Assembly: GCA_038235275.1 (NCBI GenBank)
Contig: JBBSUC010000029.1
Location: forward strand, 4,545 to 68,544
Length of the DNA: 64,000 nt
Origin: Cytophagales bacterium
GTDB lineage: Bacteria; Bacteroidota; Bacteroidia; Cytophagales; Spirosomataceae
Reading direction: 5' to 3'
In this document: positions 47,536 to 58,524 of the stretch, piece by piece
Numbering within the stretch: position 1 is the stretch's first letter
Layout: each line of letters begins with the position of its first letter
Program-made: the position numbers and the translations under genes
The notes under the pieces: model-generated
What the model saw: the letters and a program-made list of their open reading frames with translations, nothing else
Told to the model about the DNA's origin: nothing
Database searches by the model: none

Positions 47536-48549
47536 TCACTGCTCATAAACTGCCAAAGCCTCCTTCATCCGCCTTTTAATAATTTGTCGGAGCTTCTCAG
47601 GCTCCAGTACGGTCACGCCTTCGCCAAAGCCGAGTATTTCTTTTTCAAGCTCGAAGTTATGCTGCACTTTCAGCTTAATGACCATGCCGTCGGGACCACG
47701 CTCCACGACCTGCTGCGAAGGGTGGAGCGGCTTGGTTTCGACGTAGGGCGCATGAAGCGCGGTGACGAATAACTTCACTTTGATGGGCCGCAAATTCCCA
47801 CTCACCGTAACCCCAATGACATCGCGATAATACAGTTCAGGATCAATTAGTTGATTGGGAATGTACTCGACGTCGGGCGCGGGTTTGAGGGCCATGATTC
47901 TGTCCAGGGCCAGATTTGTAACGTTCCGCTGGTCGGTGCGAACGCCCACCGCGAACCAGCGGTTTTTGAATTCTTTCAGCCACCAGACGTGAAACGTAAA
48001 CGTCTGCGAGTTGCGGGCCGAAAAAGACTGATACGTTAATTGAATCGCTTTCTTCTGAACCACGGCCTGGTACAGGTCGTCCAGGAAGTGCAGCCCTTTC
48101 AGGTTATCGTTTTTCTCAAAATCAATCACCGGAGCCACCTTTCGGGCCGACGAAAAAACGTGGTCTTCCAGCTTCTGCACCACTTCATTGAGGGCTGTAA
48201 AGTGCGAAAAACTCTTGAACTGTTTCAAAACCTCCACCGCTTCGTTCATCCGCGCCAAGTCGCCGTCCGAGAGCGGAATGTTGGTGATGCTGTAATTGGG
48301 ATCTTCGTAGGTGTAGTACTTCTTCTCCCGGATGATGATGGGCGCAAAATACCCCAGCTTGTCGCTCCGCATCATCTGCAAATCGGCCTGCACCGTGCGG
48401 CGGCTAATGCCTTTGTCGATGCCCTCGTATTCGTAGAGCGATTCCGAAACCTTTTCCATCAGATCTTCGAGCGTCCAGTTGCGCTGCCGGTTGCGCAGAC
48501 AGGCGTCGATGGTTTTGTAGCGGACGAGGGCGTTGCGGTTGGCGGGCAT
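47536..48549 (-). CDS. WYL-domain transcriptional regulator (HTH-WYL-C-terminal extension)
   Basis: N-terminal HTH (LVRYKTIDACLRNRQRNWTLEDLMEKV...ISRRTVQADLQMMR). Central WYL-type domain (FTFHVWWLKEFKNRWFAVG). Start moved to Met MPANRN; the ORF extends upstream to 48648. Confidence 0.75.
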   Translation of the reverse strand: MPANRNALVRYKTIDACLRNRQRNWTLEDLMEKVSESLYEYEGIDKGISRRTVQADLQMMRSDKLGYFAPIIIREKKYYTYEDPNYSITNIPLSDGDLARMNEAVEVLKQFKSFSHFTALNEVVQKLEDHVFSSARKVAPVIDFEKNDNLKGLHFLDDLYQAVVQKKAIQLTYQSFSARNSQTFTFHVWWLKEFKNRWFAVGVRTDQRNVTNLALDRIMALKPAPDVEYIPNQLIDPELYYRDVIGVTVSGNLRPIKVKLFVTALHAPYVETKPLHPSQQVVERGPDGMVIKLKVQHNFELEKEILGFGEGVTVLEPEKLRQIIKRRMKEALAVYEQ

Positions 48550-48783
48550 GAGCAGGAAAGAAAAAATATTTTCAGAAAAATAGAAAGTTTTTTCATCTGC
48601 GCAAAAACACTGCGCACTAGCCACTAACCTTTGTAGCGACGAAAGCAACGTAGTCGAACCTGATGCGGGTTTCTTTATAGCCCCATAGTGTCGGTAGTCG
48701 CTGACTGCCGATATGCTGTCGGCTGCGCCCTGTTTTTCGTCATTTGATCTGTCGGTCAGAGGTTCAATTCCTCTTCCTGCTTC

Positions 48784-48840
48784 GGCAGGATAGCTCAGTG
48801 GTTAGAGCAACAGTAAATGCGGGTTCGAGTCCTGCTACCA
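48784..48840 (+). ncRNA. truncated tRNA-like element (acceptor stem + D-arm + T-loop-like segment, no anticodon arm)
   Basis: GGCAGGA-TA-GCTCAGTGGTTAGAGC gives perfect tRNA 5' acceptor and D-arm consensus. The 3' TCCTGCT-A-CCA pairs with the 5' acceptor, and GGTTCGAGTCC is the T-loop consensus. Only ~20 nt separate D-arm and 3' acceptor, so total length is ~57 nt. Confidence 0.4.
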
Positions 48841-49183
48841 CCCGAAAGGGTGGTCCGTTGGTGGAAGGCGAAGCAGACCACTTCATAAAAAAGGTCACCT
48901 TGAAAAACCAGTAGAGACGCTGCCCCGTGAACTATTCGGCTTGCCGGATACGCCACAATTGAGTCGATGCCAGCGGGCAGACCAGGGGACAGCCGGGCCG
49001 GAAGGCCGCTTCTGGAAGAGCATTCAGTATTGATTCTGCCAACGATTTCCCTGTTGGCACCCGGTGCTGAACCCTTTTTCCGAACCGCCTTCCCGAAGGT
49101 CGTCGCCACCTGCCTCCGCGTGGGCTGAATGGGTAGCGGCTCGCTGGTTTATATTTAGCAACCACTTTTTATCAAAAATAACC

Positions 49184-50394: not shown

Positions 50395-51930
50395 ATGGAA
50401 ACTGACTTGATTACCATCGAAGACATTTTGGTGCTTGCTCCCATCCCCACCGACCTGCACACGCCTTTCCTGCGGGTGGCCAATGGCTTGACGCAGCGGG
50501 CCAAATATCCCAAAGAAAAAGTTCTGGGCTTGCTGGCGCAGATGTTCCAAAACCCAAAAAAATACGCCTACTCCAAAAACAAGGTCACCAATCTGGCCCG
50601 CACCATTTACGCCCTCAACAAGCAAGGCATCTCCGTCCCGTTGAGCGAAGCCGGGGCTGCTTACCTGCTGCCAGAACCGACGCCCTACGCCATTCAGGCC
50701 GAGGGAAAGCAGCAGGCCACGGCCTTCGACCTGCGAACGGAGCGGCTGCCCTACGCTATTTTTGGTCGCGAACACATCGAAGACGGCGCCTTGCAGCAAA
50801 TGGAAACCGCCGCCAGTCTACCCATTGCGGTGGCCGGGGCGCTCATGCCTGACGCGCATCAGGGCTACGGCCTGCCCATCGGTGGGGTACTGGCCACGGA
50901 GCCGAACACCATCATTCCGTTTGCCGTCGGTGTCGATATCGCCTGCCGAATGTGCCTGTCGGTTTTTGACCTGCCGCCGGATTACTTGAAGCGCGAGCCG
51001 CATTTGCTCAAAAAGACTTTGGTCGAAAAAACCAAATTCGGGATGGGCGGCGAAGTGCGCGAGAAGTTCGACGAGAGCGTCATGGACTTGCCTGAGTGGC
51101 AGGCGACCAAGGTCATTCGCGATCTGAAAGACAAGGCATACCGGCAATTGGGAACGTCCGGTACGGGCAATCACTTCGCGGAGTGGGGCATCATGGACGT
51201 GTACGCCCAAGACGAAGCCAACGGCCTCGACCTGCCGCCGGGCCAATACATGGCGCTGCTGACGCATTCGGGTTCGCGGGGTTTTGGCGGGACGGTGGCG
51301 AATTATTACTCCAAACTCGCCATGCAGAAAACCCGCCTGCCCAAACAAGCCGCGCACCTGGCCTGGCTCGACCTGAACACCGAAGAAGGGCAGGAATACT
51401 GGATTGCCATGAACCTGGCGGGCGAATACGCCTCGGCCAATCACCACGAAATCCATAATAAAATAGCCAAAGCCCTGCGCGAAAAACCACAGCTGATGAT
51501 TGAAAACCATCATAACTTCGCCTGGAAAGAGCAACTGGCCGACGGCCGCGAGGTGATGGTGCACCGCAAGGGTGCTACCCCCGCCGGACCCGGCGTGCTG
51601 GGCATCATTCCGGGTTCGATGACCAAACCCGGCTTCGTGGTGCGGGGTCGCGGCCACGCCGATTCCATTAATTCGGCTTCGCACGGGGCCGGGCGGCTGA
51701 TGTCGCGGACGAAAGCCCTCAACAGCATCACGCAGTCGCAGTTGAACAAGGCGTTGCAGGAAGCCGACATTCAGCTCATCGGCGGTGATCTGGACGAGGC
51801 CCCGATGGTGTACAAAGACATCGACACCGTCATTGACGCCCAGCGCGAATTGGTGGAGGTACTGGCGAAGTTTACGCCGAAAATTGTGAGGATGGCGGAT
51901 GCTAATCGGAAGGAGGGGCGGGAGGATTGA
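50395..51930 (+). CDS. rtcB: RtcB-family RNA ligase with ~110-aa N-terminal extension
   Basis: Metal-binding MPDAHQGYGLPIGGV, GTSGTGNHF, HSGSRGFG, and the C-terminal NHHNFAW motif characteristic of RtcB. At 511 aa it is longer than the ~400-aa canonical enzyme. Confidence 0.85.
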   Translation: METDLITIEDILVLAPIPTDLHTPFLRVANGLTQRAKYPKEKVLGLLAQMFQNPKKYAYSKNKVTNLARTIYALNKQGISVPLSEAGAAYLLPEPTPYAIQAEGKQQATAFDLRTERLPYAIFGREHIEDGALQQMETAASLPIAVAGALMPDAHQGYGLPIGGVLATEPNTIIPFAVGVDIACRMCLSVFDLPPDYLKREPHLLKKTLVEKTKFGMGGEVREKFDESVMDLPEWQATKVIRDLKDKAYRQLGTSGTGNHFAEWGIMDVYAQDEANGLDLPPGQYMALLTHSGSRGFGGTVANYYSKLAMQKTRLPKQAAHLAWLDLNTEEGQEYWIAMNLAGEYASANHHEIHNKIAKALREKPQLMIENHHNFAWKEQLADGREVMVHRKGATPAGPGVLGIIPGSMTKPGFVVRGRGHADSINSASHGAGRLMSRTKALNSITQSQLNKALQEADIQLIGGDLDEAPMVYKDIDTVIDAQRELVEVLAKFTPKIVRMADANRKEGRED

Positions 51931-52853: not shown

Positions 52854-53281
52854 GAGCGGCGGGGTGAGTTTTTGGTAAAGTTAGGGAATAGTTGGGGATG
52901 TGTAATGGTGCCATTGCTGACGTGCGTTGGGTGAACACGGCCCGCTCCTACCTGGGTCTGGTCTCTTCGGCCTGGCAGTTCTCACGCCGTTGTGCGCTCT
53001 CATGGAGTGAAAGTTTCGTTCCTTGTTTGCAAATCGCGAACAAAGAACAGACTAGCGTCCTAGCGACTTGGGATTGTTCAGATGGTTGGTACGAATTGAA
53101 AGGAAGGGAAGATTGAGAATACTTAGTGGCTTCGGCCTTCGTCGCGTTGCAAACGCGAGGTGATGCAACGCCCGATTGTAAATCGGGGTTAGCGGGGGAG
53201 ATACATACATAAACGGCTGGTGCTAAATCAAAAAAAAGTCGCCAAATTGTGACCCACTACACAGAATGAACACGTAAGCGT

Positions 53282-54094
53282 ATGCCAACTCCCTATCTTA
53301 GATGGACTGGATCGAAAAGATGGCTAATAAAAGATCACATAAAAGATTATCTACCAGTAAGTTTTAATAATTATCATGAACCATTCCTAGGGGGAGGGGC
53401 TATGTTTTTCTATTTAATAACAAACAACCCCAATAGTATTAAGAAATTTAATCTTTCCGATGTAAATGAGGAGTTGATCAACTGCTACATTCAGGTACGC
53501 GATAAGCCGAAAGATTTAGTTAACACGTTAAAATCTTTCAACAATACTAAACAGCACTACTACTACATTAGAGATAAAATGTTTAGAGATGATATTAGTA
53601 GGGCTGCGAGATTTATTTTTCTAAACCGTACTTCCTTCAATGGTATTTATCGTGTTAATAATCAAGGAAAGTATAATGTACCTTACGGATATAGACAAAA
53701 AGTTGATTTTGTTACTGAGGACCTAATTCTTTCTGTTAGCAACTCATTAAAGTCAGTTGAGTTAAATTGTCGGAGTTTTGAAGAATCCATAGAACAAATC
53801 CAAAGAAAAGACCTTGTTTTTATTGATCCACCTTATACAGTAGCGCATGAAAATAATGGATTTATAGAGTATAACCAAAAATTATTTTCTTGGGAAGATC
53901 AGATAAGACTCCGAGATTTTATTGAAAAAGTTAAATTGAAGGGAGCACATTTTATTCTCACTAATGCTAGTCATCCATCAATTTCAGAATTATACGCTGG
54001 TATTGGTGCGTCTAAAACATTAAGTCGTATATGTAAAGTTGGCGGCAGAAACAAGACTCGTGGAGATTTCAATGAACTATTAATATATGGTTAA
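53282..54094 (+). CDS. Dam-family (alpha-class) DNA N6-adenine methyltransferase
   Basis: N-terminal YLRWTGSKRWL (Dam RxxKWAGGK-like SAM motif). FLGGGAM. Catalytic DPPY in FIDPPYTVAH. AT-rich coding sequence. Confidence 0.85.
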   Translation: MPTPYLRWTGSKRWLIKDHIKDYLPVSFNNYHEPFLGGGAMFFYLITNNPNSIKKFNLSDVNEELINCYIQVRDKPKDLVNTLKSFNNTKQHYYYIRDKMFRDDISRAARFIFLNRTSFNGIYRVNNQGKYNVPYGYRQKVDFVTEDLILSVSNSLKSVELNCRSFEESIEQIQRKDLVFIDPPYTVAHENNGFIEYNQKLFSWEDQIRLRDFIEKVKLKGAHFILTNASHPSISELYAGIGASKTLSRICKVGGRNKTRGDFNELLIYG

Positions 54095-55044
54095 AATTTT
54101 ACCTTGTTCTTTAAATAAAGAATTTTATTACAGACTATTTGGCCAGAAGGTTGAATATTGATAGAAGGATTTTTAGGTTGCTTCAAATATAAACAGGTTA
54201 CAGATTCGAATCTTTGGCTTATGAGAATTGAAGCAATTGTAAAAATTTTGGGCCCAAGAGACAAAAATAAGATATCCCTTTTGTAGATATTATTACTCAC
54301 AATCTCGGCATAAGTTCTGAAAATATATTCAAGATCTTGAATTGGGCATTTGACCCAATGGTTTATATCCCCCTTCAATATAGTTTTAATGTCACTCATA
54401 TTATTTGGTGAATAGTTTGGATCCAAAGAACTCGCAATAATTCCCAACGTAGAGTTCGGTTCGATATCCTCTATCACGGCCTTGACCAGATATGGAGAAT
54501 ATCCCACGCCTAATACTAATAAGGTACGAACATTTGCACTCAAAGACCCTTCATGAGAAGGAAGTGAACTAATTTCGCTATATGTGTAGTCTAGGAATTT
54601 TGCCTTCTCGTATATCCCAATCGAATAAGTTAAGTATACTTCAATGTCCTTTTCTTGTTGAAAACGAAGAAAATTTAGAATACCAGAATACCATAGTCGT
54701 GCCATTGAGGTGTAGTCAACTAAAATACGAACGGTAGCAGTATCATCGAGTTTCGTAAAGATAGTAATCAACTCACTGTAAATACCCTTTTCCTCTGCGG
54801 AAGAAATTAGCACTGCCTTGGAGCCCTTTTCTGAATAGAATAAATCATTTTGCTTTCTAACAGGGTTGTGTTCAAACTCCTTAAAACCTAAGACTAATGG
54901 ATAATGAATTTGCTCAAAATCAATACTTTTTGCGACAAAAGTGGCGCGACTTTCATAACCTGACGCAAATATTCCAATATCGAAAGCAATATCTTTAATT
55001 TCAGATATTGCTATGTTACGTACGCTAATAAGATTAAGCATCAA
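54091..55044 (-). CDS. hypothetical protein, third gene of phosphoesterase-ATPase operon
   Basis: 317 aa. Its start overlaps the ATPase stop by 11 nt. AT-rich. No motif recognised. Confidence 0.5.
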   Translation of the reverse strand: MMLNLISVRNIAISEIKDIAFDIGIFASGYESRATFVAKSIDFEQIHYPLVLGFKEFEHNPVRKQNDLFYSEKGSKAVLISSAEEKGIYSELITIFTKLDDTATVRILVDYTSMARLWYSGILNFLRFQQEKDIEVYLTYSIGIYEKAKFLDYTYSEISSLPSHEGSLSANVRTLLVLGVGYSPYLVKAVIEDIEPNSTLGIIASSLDPNYSPNNMSDIKTILKGDINHWVKCPIQDLEYIFRTYAEIVSNNIYKRDILFLSLGPKIFTIASILISQRFESVTCLYLKQPKNPSINIQPSGQIVCNKILYLKNKVKF

Positions 55045-56869
55045 AATTTATAGATAATTGTTGGAAATTTGGAATACTTGAAAGACGTCGGGAATCACCT
55101 TTCCTAGGTAGAAGCTTAAATCTTGGAGAAAGTATAAAGGCCAAATGAAATACTCCTTCCATTGTTGGCATATAGTCCGGATTTTGCGAGTTTATGTTTG
55201 GATAAATTAATCCTCGTTGAACAGCTCTTTCGATTAACTTCCACTCAATATCGCCAATTGTATTTGTTATCTCAATTGATGATATCTGTTCTAAATTGAG
55301 TTTGTTATTATGGATATGATCGTACATAAAATTTCCAATTGACAAAATAAATTCATGCAATCCCGTTCCAAAGTTTTTTTCGATTCGATAACGATTCAGT
55401 TCACGCTCGGAAATTGACGTGAGAACCATGTTCTGATTGCTGTATGATATTACTGGCTGTGGTAACTCAATATGGATTGGTGATTTTTGCTTGTTATACT
55501 TACCTGATTCGACAACTGATAACATTTCGCTGAATATATCAATCAGCTTCCGAGGGTTAGCATCACCAACATTGATGACAGTTTTTGCACCACAGTACAA
55601 TTCCATATTTGATTTACCCGTTCGTGTTGCCTCATACTCTTTTAAATATAATAAAGCTCTTAATTTTCTCCCGAATTGATTACCAAATTTACCTATTTCT
55701 TTGCTAGCCAATAACTCAACACCCCGTCGCTTGGTAGCTTCGTTGGTATGCTTAAGAAAAAGCGAAAGCGTTTCATTTCCTATCACTAATTCCTCAATAT
55801 TTGCTAAGGTCAGCTTTTTCTTATTAGAATTCAAAATTTCATCATAGGAAATCATTTTATTATCCAATAGATATGATTTTCCGAACAAATCCTGAAAAGT
55901 ATAGTCAGCAAACTCTGGCTTCGACAATTGAGCTCGTTTCTTAAATAACTTGTAAGCGTTACTATTATTAGGAATTGCTCTGTATCCGAAAGAAACATCC
56001 TGATCAATGTATACGTATTCTACATCATGTCGAATATCTAGCGGTACGTTTAAGTTCGTTTCCAGAGTGTAGTGACAATAAGGTAACGTTGTAAATTTAA
56101 AGAAAATATTCCCCATATTCGCTCTCATATAGGAATTCAAGATTCTATGATGAAATTCGTCAAGCATCTCGATTTCGTCAATGCAGACAAACCAGGAAGT
56201 ATAGTCAGGAAATTGAAGTCCCCTACTAATAATCTTTATGCCATCGATAAGCGGATCATAAAGGTCAAGCTCAAAGGTAAGGCCGATCGGCTCTTCGTCA
56301 CGAACGATATTATATATTTTCTTTTCGAGATTACGCTTTGATCGGAGAGTAACAATTCGTTCCAGTTCTAATAGAATATCATCTATTGAAACTATTTTTG
56401 TGGCCTCAGGAAACCAAGTTCTCGAAAGGTTGCGTACTATTTCAACCTCCTTTACAACACGCTCTTCATCCACTTCAATGTAAGCAGAAAGGCAACTCCT
56501 AAATGTTTCAAGCAAAGCGATGCAAGAAGCAATATTCATTAGCCAACGAAAATGATATTCTTTTTCTTGATCATTCTGCCAGTCTTTGTTTTTTAGCCCC
56601 CCTACAAACTTTGTTTTTGTCGATATGTGAATCCCAATGTAAGTCTTATTTAGGATAATATCTTTGGCAATTACATTTTCCAATAAAGACAGATGATCAT
56701 GAGAAAGTACTTTAAGAAGTGCAGTCTTGCCTGAACCCCTAGATCCAATAATAATCTGGTTTTTAGGAGATAATAGTCTTTCAAATGAATGGGTCACTAC
56801 AAAAGTATCAACCAACTCCCTTTTGAGTAGGTAACGCGCATTATGTAGTGCAAACAAATTTCTATTCAT
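55034..56869 (-). CDS. P-loop NTPase (Walker A/B ATPase) of unassigned family
   Basis: 611 aa. Walker A IIIGSRGSGKTALLKVL. Putative Walker B FVCIDEIEMLDEFHH ~180 aa downstream (ABC/AAA_21-like spacing). Overlaps flanking genes by 4 and 11 nt. Confidence 0.65.
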   Translation of the reverse strand: MNRNLFALHNARYLLKRELVDTFVVTHSFERLLSPKNQIIIGSRGSGKTALLKVLSHDHLSLLENVIAKDIILNKTYIGIHISTKTKFVGGLKNKDWQNDQEKEYHFRWLMNIASCIALLETFRSCLSAYIEVDEERVVKEVEIVRNLSRTWFPEATKIVSIDDILLELERIVTLRSKRNLEKKIYNIVRDEEPIGLTFELDLYDPLIDGIKIISRGLQFPDYTSWFVCIDEIEMLDEFHHRILNSYMRANMGNIFFKFTTLPYCHYTLETNLNVPLDIRHDVEYVYIDQDVSFGYRAIPNNSNAYKLFKKRAQLSKPEFADYTFQDLFGKSYLLDNKMISYDEILNSNKKKLTLANIEELVIGNETLSLFLKHTNEATKRRGVELLASKEIGKFGNQFGRKLRALLYLKEYEATRTGKSNMELYCGAKTVINVGDANPRKLIDIFSEMLSVVESGKYNKQKSPIHIELPQPVISYSNQNMVLTSISERELNRYRIEKNFGTGLHEFILSIGNFMYDHIHNNKLNLEQISSIEITNTIGDIEWKLIERAVQRGLIYPNINSQNPDYMPTMEGVFHLAFILSPRFKLLPRKGDSRRLSSIPNFQQLSINFDA

Positions 56870-58074
56870 TCTTGCTCATTTACAAATATGATTCTATTTC
56901 CAACTGTTCCTCTACTGAGATTGTATCTGTCTTCAATGTCTTTCAGCAGCTTTTCTTGTTTTGTATTCGGTAAGTATTCCATATCTGCAATTCCTGAGAC
57001 TACATTATCAAAAAAAATAACTTTTTCACCTAGCCCAATTCTCTCAATATTTTGGGAACATTGATCCAAAATCTTTTCAACAGGTGTTTCATTACCGAAG
57101 GGATTTATAAAGTAAATCCCATGATTATCTCGACTCTCTATCCACTCATATAACGTAGGATCATAGGCAAATGACAAAACTTTTCCCTTACATGGCTTTT
57201 CATTAACTTCAATAATGTGGAACAGGTTACCAACGGCCCCTGCAATTTCGGAAGGGACTTCGCAAGAATAACTGCCTGAACATAAAATGTTGATAGTTGA
57301 AGTGCCATTTGGATTGATTACTGAAAAAAAAGGCACGTGTCGGTGTCCATGAATGACGAAGTGAAAATCGAATTCTGATAACAGATCCAACAAAGCCTGA
57401 GCATTCTGTATACAAGAGAATTCACGCCATGTCGGATGTGGATTAGTATATTGATACACATGGTGATGAACTACAAAGACTTTAAGTTTGTCTTCAAAAA
57501 CAGTCAATTCTAACATTTCTCTAAGCTTTGCCACTTGACTTAGCTCAATTAGACCGTAGTGACTTTTTTGTAATGGATCGTCATGCCAAGACGAATTGAA
57601 ACCGAAATACACCACATCATTAAATTCCCACTTCTCAATATATGGTTCTGCCACTAATGCAGATGATGAAAGTCTTGAGAAAATATGTTCAGGATCTTTT
57701 AAAGTATTGTATTTGTGTCGCTTTCTAAGTTCTCGCTCATTTTCTTGAATTGTTGAACCATTTAATACTGACCAATCTACGTCATGATTACCAGGGACAA
57801 AAATTACTTTCGTGTCTTCCATGTGAAGTTCAGAAAGCACCTTGCGCAAGAATACTTCTCCACAATCATATTCAACGAGATTGGATTGATGAGTAACATC
57901 TCCTGGAATTACTAGATAATCAATATTTCCGTTGCTATCCTGATAGATTTTCAGCGCTCTAAGAAATGAACTTACTTGCTTATCATCTTTGCTGTTTCCC
58001 TCTGGATAGGGACAAAGTTCTTTCGTTCTAGCGCGTACCCCAATGTGAAGGTCACTAATTACCAATATTTTCAT
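56866..58074 (-). CDS. calcineurin-like metallophosphoesterase (Mre11/SbcD-like fold) with C-terminal extension
   Basis: 402 aa. Motifs ISDLHIG, IPGDVTH, VPGNHD, VVHHH, HGHRH. First gene of the three-gene operon. Confidence 0.8.
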   Translation of the reverse strand: MKILVISDLHIGVRARTKELCPYPEGNSKDDKQVSSFLRALKIYQDSNGNIDYLVIPGDVTHQSNLVEYDCGEVFLRKVLSELHMEDTKVIFVPGNHDVDWSVLNGSTIQENERELRKRHKYNTLKDPEHIFSRLSSSALVAEPYIEKWEFNDVVYFGFNSSWHDDPLQKSHYGLIELSQVAKLREMLELTVFEDKLKVFVVHHHVYQYTNPHPTWREFSCIQNAQALLDLLSEFDFHFVIHGHRHVPFFSVINPNGTSTINILCSGSYSCEVPSEIAGAVGNLFHIIEVNEKPCKGKVLSFAYDPTLYEWIESRDNHGIYFINPFGNETPVEKILDQCSQNIERIGLGEKVIFFDNVVSGIADMEYLPNTKQEKLLKDIEDRYNLSRGTVGNRIIFVNEQE

Positions 58075-58524
58075 TTATCTTAAAAGGTAAAGCCTGACAA
58101 GTGTCTTATGATCTTGCCACCGCCTACTTAGAATGTGTCTGATTTGAGAAGATAAAAGAGTCCATTTTTGTACATTATAAGTGCCAGATCGAAAGTAATG
58201 ATACAATTTTGTCTCTGCCATCTTCCCGTATCTCGTAGTTTTCCCAGGTATTAAGTTGTGCGTATGTCTTCCGAAGGGAGACTGCATACTAAAATAAGAG
58301 GCCACTGATGGTCGGCCCCGTTCAACGGCCACCGTCGTCAAAAGCCGCATACTCCGCTAATCCTAATTTAATGGCGAGCCAGTTATATCGTGGCTGTTTT
58401 TTTCAAATATACTTTTTTTTGCGAGAGATTTTAAATATTTAACCATTTAGCTCTTTACACGCAAGAATCCACTTTTCCTCGTCCGTAGGCTTTACGGGAA
58501 CTCGCTTCACTAAATCCCTCCCCC

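Follow-up and report, generated by a model that had tools for sequence, protein, structure and literature searches.

What is a tRNA-shaped sequence without an anticodon arm doing directly upstream of the genes for a slipin (an SPFH/Band-7 protein) and the RNA ligase RtcB: is it a small tRNA-like RNA, the remnant of a tRNA gene, or part of something else? We addressed this question for a 64-kb stretch of a Cytophagales genome (contig JBBSUC010000029.1, positions 4,545 to 68,544 of the forward strand), referred to throughout as the window. At 48784-48854 the initial annotation had drawn a 57-nt tRNA lacking the anticodon arm, followed by a separate hairpin, and had offered two explanations, namely the scar of a tRNA gene used for integration or a tRNA-mimic RNA beside an RNA-ligase locus. 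The slice that it noted proves to consist of the 3' half of one closed acceptor hairpin, the adjoining D-arm and the T-arm and closed hairpin of a second unit, and the 57-nt tRNA is a frame-shifted reading over two adjacent, permuted tRNA-like modules. We consider it probable that these modules form the tRNA-like domain of a ~500-nt plus-strand RNA, encoded between a WYL-domain regulator gene and slipin-rtcB, that serves as the RNA partner of this repair system.

Two permuted tRNA-like modules upstream of slipin

Eighty Bacteroidota loci were gathered through the neighbouring slipin protein, and in 67 of them nhmmer placed the element 300-500 nt upstream of slipin. The cores of 58 loci were aligned with MAFFT, and an independent run of RNAalifold on this alignment returned six helices, comprising a closing helix, T-arm 1, acceptor hairpin 1, the D-arm, T-arm 2 and hairpin 2. 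Compensatory changes occur in 24 of the 28 pairs of the consensus structure. Measured against shuffles and slid pairing partners, the permuted structure is 94.6% paired as opposed to 72.4% in shuffles (0/500 reach it), and it reaches a covariation score of 0.666 where slid partners give 0.10-0.18. In the window, the domain is made up of the following parts, with counts referring to the 58 loci:

48749..48752, plus strand: 5' strand of the closing helix, CTGT, which replaces the anticodon stem and pairs with 48810-48813 (alignment columns 6-9/74-77, 94% paired, 4/4 pairs compensatory)
48753..48757, plus strand: variable-loop equivalent CGGTC, bearing G46 and C48 (G46 in 53/58, Y48 in 58/58)
48758..48774, plus strand: T-arm 1, AGAGG-TTCAATT-CCTCT (100% paired, 3/5 pairs covary; T54, C56 and A58 invariant)
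48775..48790, plus strand: closed acceptor hairpin 1, TCCTGC-TTCG-GCAGGA (94.7% paired, 5/5 pairs compensatory), aligned by the YrlA model as an acceptor stem-loop
48791..48808, plus strand: U8-A9 and D-arm GCTC-AGTGGTTA-GAGC (U8, A9 and A14 in 58/58, D-loop GG in 56/58, stem 99.6% paired)
48810..48813, plus strand: 3' strand of the closing helix, ACAG, covarying with CTGT
48819..48835, plus strand: T-arm 2, GCGGG-TTCGAGT-CCTGC (100% paired, 3/5 pairs covary)
48837..48854, plus strand: closed acceptor-like hairpin 2, ACCACCC-GAAA-GGGTGGT (a hairpin of 4-8 bp with a 3-11 nt loop stands here in 56/58; 5/5 aligned pairs covary)

Module 1 (48749-48813) mimics a tRNA in circularly permuted form and is of the type of YrlA, the permuted tRNA with a closed acceptor stem (Wang et al. 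2018). Its parts follow one another in the order closing helix, variable-loop equivalent, T-arm, closed acceptor, U8-A9 and D-arm. The nucleotides that build the core and elbow of a tRNA are retained: U8, A14, T54, C56 and A58 are present in all 58 loci, G46 and the D-loop GG are nearly as constant, and the Levitt pair covaries, being G15:C48 in 49 loci and A15:U48 in five. In module 2 (48819-48854) a second T-arm stacks on a closed acceptor-like hairpin, the latter abutting T-arm 2 just as an acceptor stem abuts the T-arm, so that the two make an acceptor/T 'minihelix' in which the GAAA hairpin is the acceptor stem. The GAAA loop itself, found in 3 of 56 relatives, is incidental.

Several elements of the initial annotation stand on direct reading of the sequence. 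The D-arm preceded by UA is present at 48791-48808, the T-loop GGTTCGAGTCC lies inside T-arm 2, the hairpin at 48837-48854 is a perfect 7-bp hairpin, and no anticodon arm fits between the D-arm and T-arm 2, which are separated by only 10 nt. The proposal of a tRNA-mimic RNA at an RNA-ligase locus also holds in essence, given the covariation, the nucleotides of the tertiary contacts and slipin-rtcB directly downstream; the anatomy that had been drawn for it does not.

A covariance model, R1, was built from the 57 other loci with the window left out. Its sole match in the 64-kb window runs from 48744 to 48859 (89.4 bits, E ~1.5e-17) and covers the full model (positions 1-120). True members are recognised at 56-114 bits in 68 of the 80 loci, and 11 of these were outside the training set.

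A larger RNA and its gene neighbourhood

The modules are embedded in further conserved structure. Phylum-wide conservation extends over the 5' flank and over the 3' flank as far as 49150. A full-length leader alignment of 28 loci was used for the 5' and 3' domains, and permuted tails served as the control for a pseudoknot, K, that follows the modules. These parts of the RNA are:

48656..48722, plus strand: 5' domain, with a bulged hairpin ATG[C]GGG...CCCCAT at 48663-48686 and a helix TGTCGG/CCGATA at 48689-48713 around AGTC-GCT-GACT
48713-48722, plus strand: conserved ATGCTGTCGG of the 5' domain, whose blocks are conserved phylum-wide and show compensatory changes
48870..48896, plus strand: H-type pseudoknot K, with P1 GAAG 48870-73/CTTC 48881-84, loop CAGACCA, and P2 GACC 48876-79/GGTC 48893-96
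48885-92, plus strand: A-rich strand ATAAAAAA of K, between the 3' strands of P1 and P2
48905..49150, plus strand: 3' domain, closed by a long-range helix of 48905-48929 with 49117-49150

In the full-length test the modules are 94% paired with a covariation of 0.61 (0/200 shuffles). For the 5' domain, pairing is 90% and covariation 0.48 (slid partners 0.07-0.16), and for the 3' domain the values are 82% and 0.55 (slid partners 0.12-0.18), again with 0/200 shuffles in each case, although both of these structures were derived from and scored on the same alignment, so their support is inflated. The loop of K pairs with its own tail over a mean of 4.97 bp in 73 loci, as compared with 3.67 +/- 0.10 for permuted tails (0/2000), and about 50 different P2 sequences occur among these loci. 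In the window the closing duplex of the 3' domain reaches -32.9 kcal/mol and is also found in the minimum free energy (MFE) fold; of the 19 bp in the homologous helix, UAAAGCCGG.../...CCGGCUUUA, 16 show compensatory changes, and this helix closes a domain of ~300 nt in the consensus. Between the end of the structure and the slipin ATG (49184) lie 33 nt.

Apart from a sub-threshold match to YrlA and an artefactual tRNA match, both discussed below, no family of Rfam 15 matches this RNA. Pseudoknot K resembles the preQ1-I type in layout: P1 is short, the 3' strand is A-rich, and P2 joins the loop to the sequence beyond the A-run. It differs in that its P1 has a conserved sequence of its own, AGAAG/CUUCU, and in a gene context unrelated to queuosine; identification of K as a preQ1 or other riboswitch was rejected, as Rfam gave no match at E<=10 for the window region or at E<=5 for a second locus, L048. 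A long Y-RNA-like closing stem, drawn in the window's MFE fold between 48730-48755 and 48855-48880, was likewise discarded, because it clashes with the covarying pseudoknot and because pairing between the 5' flank and the 3' region does not exceed that with permuted partners (79/300). By this control no long closing stem is conserved.

The RNA is flanked by the following genes and signals, with protein domains assigned by Pfam:

47536..48551, minus strand: WYL/WCX-domain transcription regulator, divergent, with its ATG at 48551 (WYL 4.5e-10, WCX 9.8e-15)
48597..48616, plus strand: direct repeat CTGCGCA-AAAACA-CTGCGCA between the regulator gene and the RNA, a putative operator, retained with small changes in L001-L006
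49184..50290, plus strand: slipin (SPFH/Band-7), 368 aa from M41 of the open reading frame (ORF) (Band_7 6.8e-31; homologs are named 'slipin family protein')
50395..51930, plus strand: RtcB RNA ligase, 511 aa (RtcB 6.5e-88, match from residue 135)

The RNA is always co-oriented with slipin and at a fixed distance from it, and RtcB follows slipin on the same strand in 61 of the 80 loci. A divergent WYL regulator is recognisable only in the five closest loci (L001-L005) and in Spirosoma linguale DSM 74, which carries the same WYL-RNA-slipin-RtcB cassette among other flanking genes and whose RNA (CP001769, L204:6486-6597) scores 89.4 bits with R1. The RtcB of that cassette has 512 aa in the same position; the N-terminal extension of the window's RtcB, ~134 aa, has no Pfam assignment. 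In slipin ~150 residues precede the Band_7 match, and inspection by eye shows no hydrophobic membrane segment; if so, this would be a soluble SPFH protein, unlike the membrane-anchored stomatins. A sigma-70 promoter scan returned nothing, and the Bacteroidetes consensus differs from sigma-70. Near 48627-48634 a conserved AAYCTTTG box may represent a -7 element or else belong to the first hairpin.

Pfam annotation covered all large ORFs from 37.6 to 62.4 kb together with the two TROVE-sized ORFs elsewhere in the window. A low-GC island at 53000-58100 (GC ~0.35 versus ~0.53) has a defence-type look but no integrase, and it bears no relation to the RNA. Its products are a D12-class Dam methylase (53282-54094), an unassigned 317-aa ORF, an ORC/CDC6-like STAND NTPase (55034-56869) and a metallophosphoesterase (56866-58074).

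Variation among relatives and occurrence beyond Bacteroidota

A grammar parse of 78 loci found two full modules (T-arm, closed acceptor and D-arm) in 35, one full module in 15, one full module plus one with T-arm and acceptor only in 13, which is the window's class, and a T-arm and acceptor unit alone in four. At most loci the last module runs on into a D-arm and an anticodon-like arm of 5 bp and 7 nt, and the window's lineage has lost this D-arm and anticodon arm of module 2. In the anticodon-like loop U33 and a purine at 37 are kept, and the stem is conserved, often as CTACA/TGTAG. The triplet of the last module takes 22 values in 51 cases and differs even between close relatives (L036/L038, L042/L056 and L063/L068, with GTT/GAT, GTA/GTT and TGG/TAG); diversifying selection or gene conversion with tRNA arrays could explain this variation.

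Such arrays lie just upstream in about 20 of 60 related loci; the window has none. Each comprises 9-20 canonical tRNA genes, which share the strand of the RNA and slipin and lie ~2-4 kb ahead of slipin (L013, L015, L019, L022, L023, L027, L029, L030, L035, L036, L038, L039, L042, L045, L048, L052, L056 and L062), and L042 and L056 have a second array downstream of slipin. Ten loci have a canonical tRNA-Tyr(GTA) gene directly on the 5' side of the structured RNA (L012:5259-5344, L020:5121-5205, L042:5238-5320, L043:5037-5121, L049:5250-5335, L053:5219-5302, L056:5235-5317, L058:5318-5402, L028:5887-5971 and L061:5887-5971). In the last two, both of which are without permuted modules, it stands ~30 nt upstream of slipin.

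Full-length slipin orthologs were found in other phyla. In Citrobacter, the operon consists of a divergent rtcR, a sigma-54-type promoter, the leader, slipin and then a nucleotidyltransferase gene, and the leader has TGGG-TTCGATT-CCCA with a closed 6-bp hairpin immediately after it. A slipin and nucleotidyltransferase operon with the same leader is present in 1,632 of 5,426 complete E. coli genomes (~30%). The E. coli leader is ~300 nt long, with a sigma-54-type promoter ahead, a T-loop and a closed hairpin that carries a compensatory change relative to Citrobacter; RefSeq annotates no RNA there. The sites are L201:4680-4995 in Citrobacter freundii and L203:4480-4810 in E. coli O145 RM9872. 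As the minihelix recurs in these enterobacterial leaders, the acceptor/T unit (in the window, T-arm 2 with the GAAA hairpin) is the most widely shared core of the RNA, from Bacteroidota to E. coli. In the Firmicute Subdoligranulum, R1 finds a weak match of 27 bits at the right place upstream of slipin.

No slipin homologs were found in annotated phage genomes. A pattern scan of viral contigs (IMG/VR) gave 140 matches, of which 103 are tandem tRNAs and ~12 are genuine permuted modules. Those at L119, L127, L134, L138, L142, L151, L154, L167, L171, L175 and L186 have a closed acceptor hairpin of 5-9 bp and a closing helix and are not called as tRNAs by the gene finder ARAGORN.

Role, alternatives and known systems

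How might such an RNA act? In the mechanism we favour, it would be transcribed together with slipin-rtcB from a promoter by the WYL gene, with CTGCGCA-N6-CTGCGCA as a candidate operator. Module 1 would fold into a tRNA-like L, to which module 2 would add a second acceptor/T helix, and the whole would mimic the top half of tRNA, the part left intact when the anticodon loop is cut. Because its acceptor is closed, the mimic should not be aminoacylated, and the window version would offer no anticodon loop to cut. Most economically, it would occupy the tRNA-recognition surfaces of RtcB, slipin or associated tRNA-binding enzymes, and so act as a cofactor, scaffold or decoy of slipin-RtcB repair, as Y RNA does for Ro60. 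A role of this kind has reportedly been proposed by Burroughs and Aravind for Band-7 proteins with a tRNA-like RNA.

Several observations weigh against this picture. The cofactor, scaffold or decoy role is argued from analogy, and the support for the outer domains is inflated in the way described above. The Ro60-binding stem of YrlA has no counterpart, model positions 1-22 and 86-114 being unaligned in the window, and no TROVE/Ro60 gene occurs among the annotated ORFs, which include all large ORFs within ~10 kb and the TROVE-sized ORFs elsewhere. Finally, the stretch between the RNA and slipin has no terminator-like hairpin, and the RNA may accordingly act in cis, as a leader, instead of in trans.

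That last point leads to a serious alternative, in which the RNA is the 5' untranslated region of slipin-rtcB and the mimic either binds a product of the operon, as in thrS-type autoregulation through molecular mimicry, or is cut or processed by tRNA-directed nucleases, such that tRNA damage or free RtcB sets expression. Several features suit a leader: the 3' end of the RNA, lying 33 nt ahead of the slipin ATG, consists of the 3' strands of nested long-range helices; orientation and distance relative to slipin are constant; the enterobacterial version sits between a sigma-54-type promoter and slipin; the layout of the pseudoknot is riboswitch-like; and the last module of relatives exposes a highly variable anticodon-like loop. 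Against this, ~500 nt in three elaborate domains is large for a leader, the window version has no anticodon loop to cleave, neither the window region nor L048 matches an Rfam riboswitch, and the Y RNAs of Salmonella are also operon-encoded yet act as stable RNAs. We regard regulation in cis as possible but less likely; it shares the same anatomy with a different mode of action, and does not exclude a role as a partner of the repair proteins.

More tentatively, and with doubts of a similar order, the partner reading may be widened to an undefined class of ~500-nt RNAs built from a 5' domain, one to three tandem permuted top-half mimics, a pseudoknot and a 3' domain. Such RNAs might be dedicated partners or sensors of slipin-RtcB or slipin-nucleotidyltransferase cassettes, in Bacteroidota and, in reduced forms, in Firmicutes and ~30% of E. 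coli. The mimic would then gate RtcB or slipin activity, or expression of the operon, on tRNA damage, and the anticodon-like loop of relatives could be bait for anticodon nucleases.

The stand-alone 57-nt RNA that was first drawn, with its own acceptor stem GGCAGGA:TCCTGCT, D-arm, T-loop, encoded CCA and separate hairpin, is very improbable. Its stem is drawable, and the Rfam tRNA model (RF00005) matches 48784-48843 with 34.5 bits, above the gathering score of 29. That alignment, however, deletes the anticodon arm, replacing 13 model positions by 1 nt where the stem-loop belongs, and includes three non-standard acceptor pairs. In the 58 loci the proposed stem is 64.5% paired, compared with 63.2% in shuffles, 62 of 500 of which reach it; the pairing is a by-product of conserved GGA and TCC and would destroy T-arm 2. 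Its 5' strand is in fact the 3' strand of acceptor hairpin 1 and its partner, TCCTGC(T), the 3' strand of T-arm 2, while the CCA is the start of the GAAA hairpin and, found in just 8 of 58 relatives, incidental. At locus L048 (5524-5585) the tRNA model makes the same frame-shifted call over two modules, again with a mismatched acceptor, which marks the Rfam match as an artefact of the tandem arrangement. A complete canonical tRNA at the site, which the initial annotation had named as evidence against its own reading, is not there either: ARAGORN reports 0 tRNA genes in the whole 64-kb window and none at the homologous position among 60 loci. The case is a pitfall for annotation, in that a pseudo-tRNA spanning two modules passes the gathering score of the tRNA family.

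Just as doubtful is a genuine permuted tRNA gene, whose modules would be matured by RtcB end-joining and by opening of the acceptor loop through RNase P, RNase Z and CCA addition. Permuted tRNA genes occur in the red alga Cyanidioschyzon; to our knowledge there is no bacterial precedent. The idea draws on the last module of relatives, which has every tRNA part in permuted order and tRNA-like anticodon loops, on the RNA ligase gene next door, and on the YrlA of M. smegmatis, which is cut by RNase P and receives CCA (Wang et al. 2018). The window's modules, by contrast, have no anticodon loop, the acceptor loops are only 3-7 nt, and close relatives carry different anticodon-like triplets, which gives no hint that decoding is required.

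We give still less credence to an integration or excision scar, left in a tRNA gene at the border of an accessory island. The element does contain tRNA-derived sequence, and the low-GC island lies at 53-58 kb; the island, though, begins ~4 kb away, beyond slipin, rtcB and a peptidase gene. In 68 of 80 loci, spread over many genera, the same element keeps its position relative to slipin, under purifying selection for the permuted fold, and S. linguale has the same RNA with different neighbours. Neither an integrase, among the annotated ORFs, nor an intact or partial tRNA partner was found in the window.

A false positive from tandem or degenerate tRNAs, combining the T-arm of one with the D-arm of the next, is a known hazard of YrlA searches (flagged by Chen et al.) and a natural concern where many related loci have tRNA arrays nearby and most viral matches are tandem tRNAs, but is scarcely credible here, as the acceptor strands pair across a 3-7 nt loop with 5/5 pairs covarying, the closing helix covaries too, the window is without tRNA genes, and real tandem tRNAs in nearby arrays score 30-51 bits with R1 against 89.4 for the window.

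The partner reading is best judged beside the systems it resembles, and YrlA is the closest. Both have a T-arm, a closed acceptor stem-loop, U8-A9 and a D-arm within a helix that replaces the anticodon stem, both conserve the elbow and core nucleotides, and the operons that encode YrlA are likewise RNA-repair operons with RtcB. The YrlA model (RF02553), run at a relaxed threshold, aligns 48750-48812 to its tRNA-like module with 34.6 bits, and L048 scores 39.7 bits, although both values fall below the gathering score of 69 and only the tRNA-like module is matched. Chen et al. 2014 took as a criterion for YrlA a position within ~4 kb of a Ro60 (Rsr/TROVE) gene; here no such gene is nearby and the partner is slipin/Band-7. 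The window RNA further adds a second T-arm/acceptor unit, the pseudoknot and large flanking domains. The slipin-leader RNA would work like YrlA but departs from it in three tests, those of gathering score, Ro60-binding stem and proximity to rsr.

A second relative is the b7a-tRNA (band 7-associated tRNA), which Burroughs & Aravind 2016 predicted next to Band-7 and RtcB genes, as recounted by Wang et al. 2018, who also note that YrlA occasionally occurs next to a Band-7 gene and that the b7a-tRNA was never validated experimentally. The window shows this Band-7 and RtcB context, including the situation of a YrlA-type RNA next to Band-7. The b7a-tRNA, which is absent from Rfam, is described as 'strongly resembling an authentic tRNA', a secondary description on which this comparison is based; the window has the tRNA arms and tertiary nucleotides but in permuted order and with no anticodon arm. 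With the canonical tRNA itself, the RNA shares the D-arm, the T-arm, U8, A14, G18-G19, T54-Psi55-C56, A58 and the G15:C48 Levitt pair. It differs in an acceptor that is closed by a loop, in ends that lie elsewhere, in the missing anticodon arm and in its rejection by ARAGORN.

Anabaena co-regulates rtcB, a slipin gene and a long tRNA array under translational stress, which fits the arrays found upstream in the Bacteroidota loci. These L-arrays resemble the present system in that extra tRNA-type RNAs are linked physically and in regulation to RtcB and slipin. They differ in being canonical tRNA genes, of which the window has none, its element being a structured non-tRNA RNA. The regulator TrcR of Anabaena is an RHH protein and not a WYL protein, so that the link to the WYL regulator is one of analogy only.

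The kind of RNA described here, a tRNA-like RNA with Band-7 and RtcB or a YrlA-type mimic, has thus been known as a prediction since 2014-2016. We found no earlier description of modules in tandem, of the minihelix lacking a D-arm, of the covarying pseudoknot, of a multi-domain RNA of ~500 nt, of the lack of Ro60 or of the reduced version in enterobacteria, and none of these features is in Rfam. The structure of YrlA has been solved. Spirosoma linguale DSM 74 and the E. coli strains with the unannotated, reduced version offer experimental handles on the role of tRNA-like RNAs in bacterial RNA-repair operons. Compared with YrlA, the locus shows that a permuted tRNA mimic occurs without Ro60 too, paired with slipin and inside a much larger, covariation-supported RNA with a pseudoknot.

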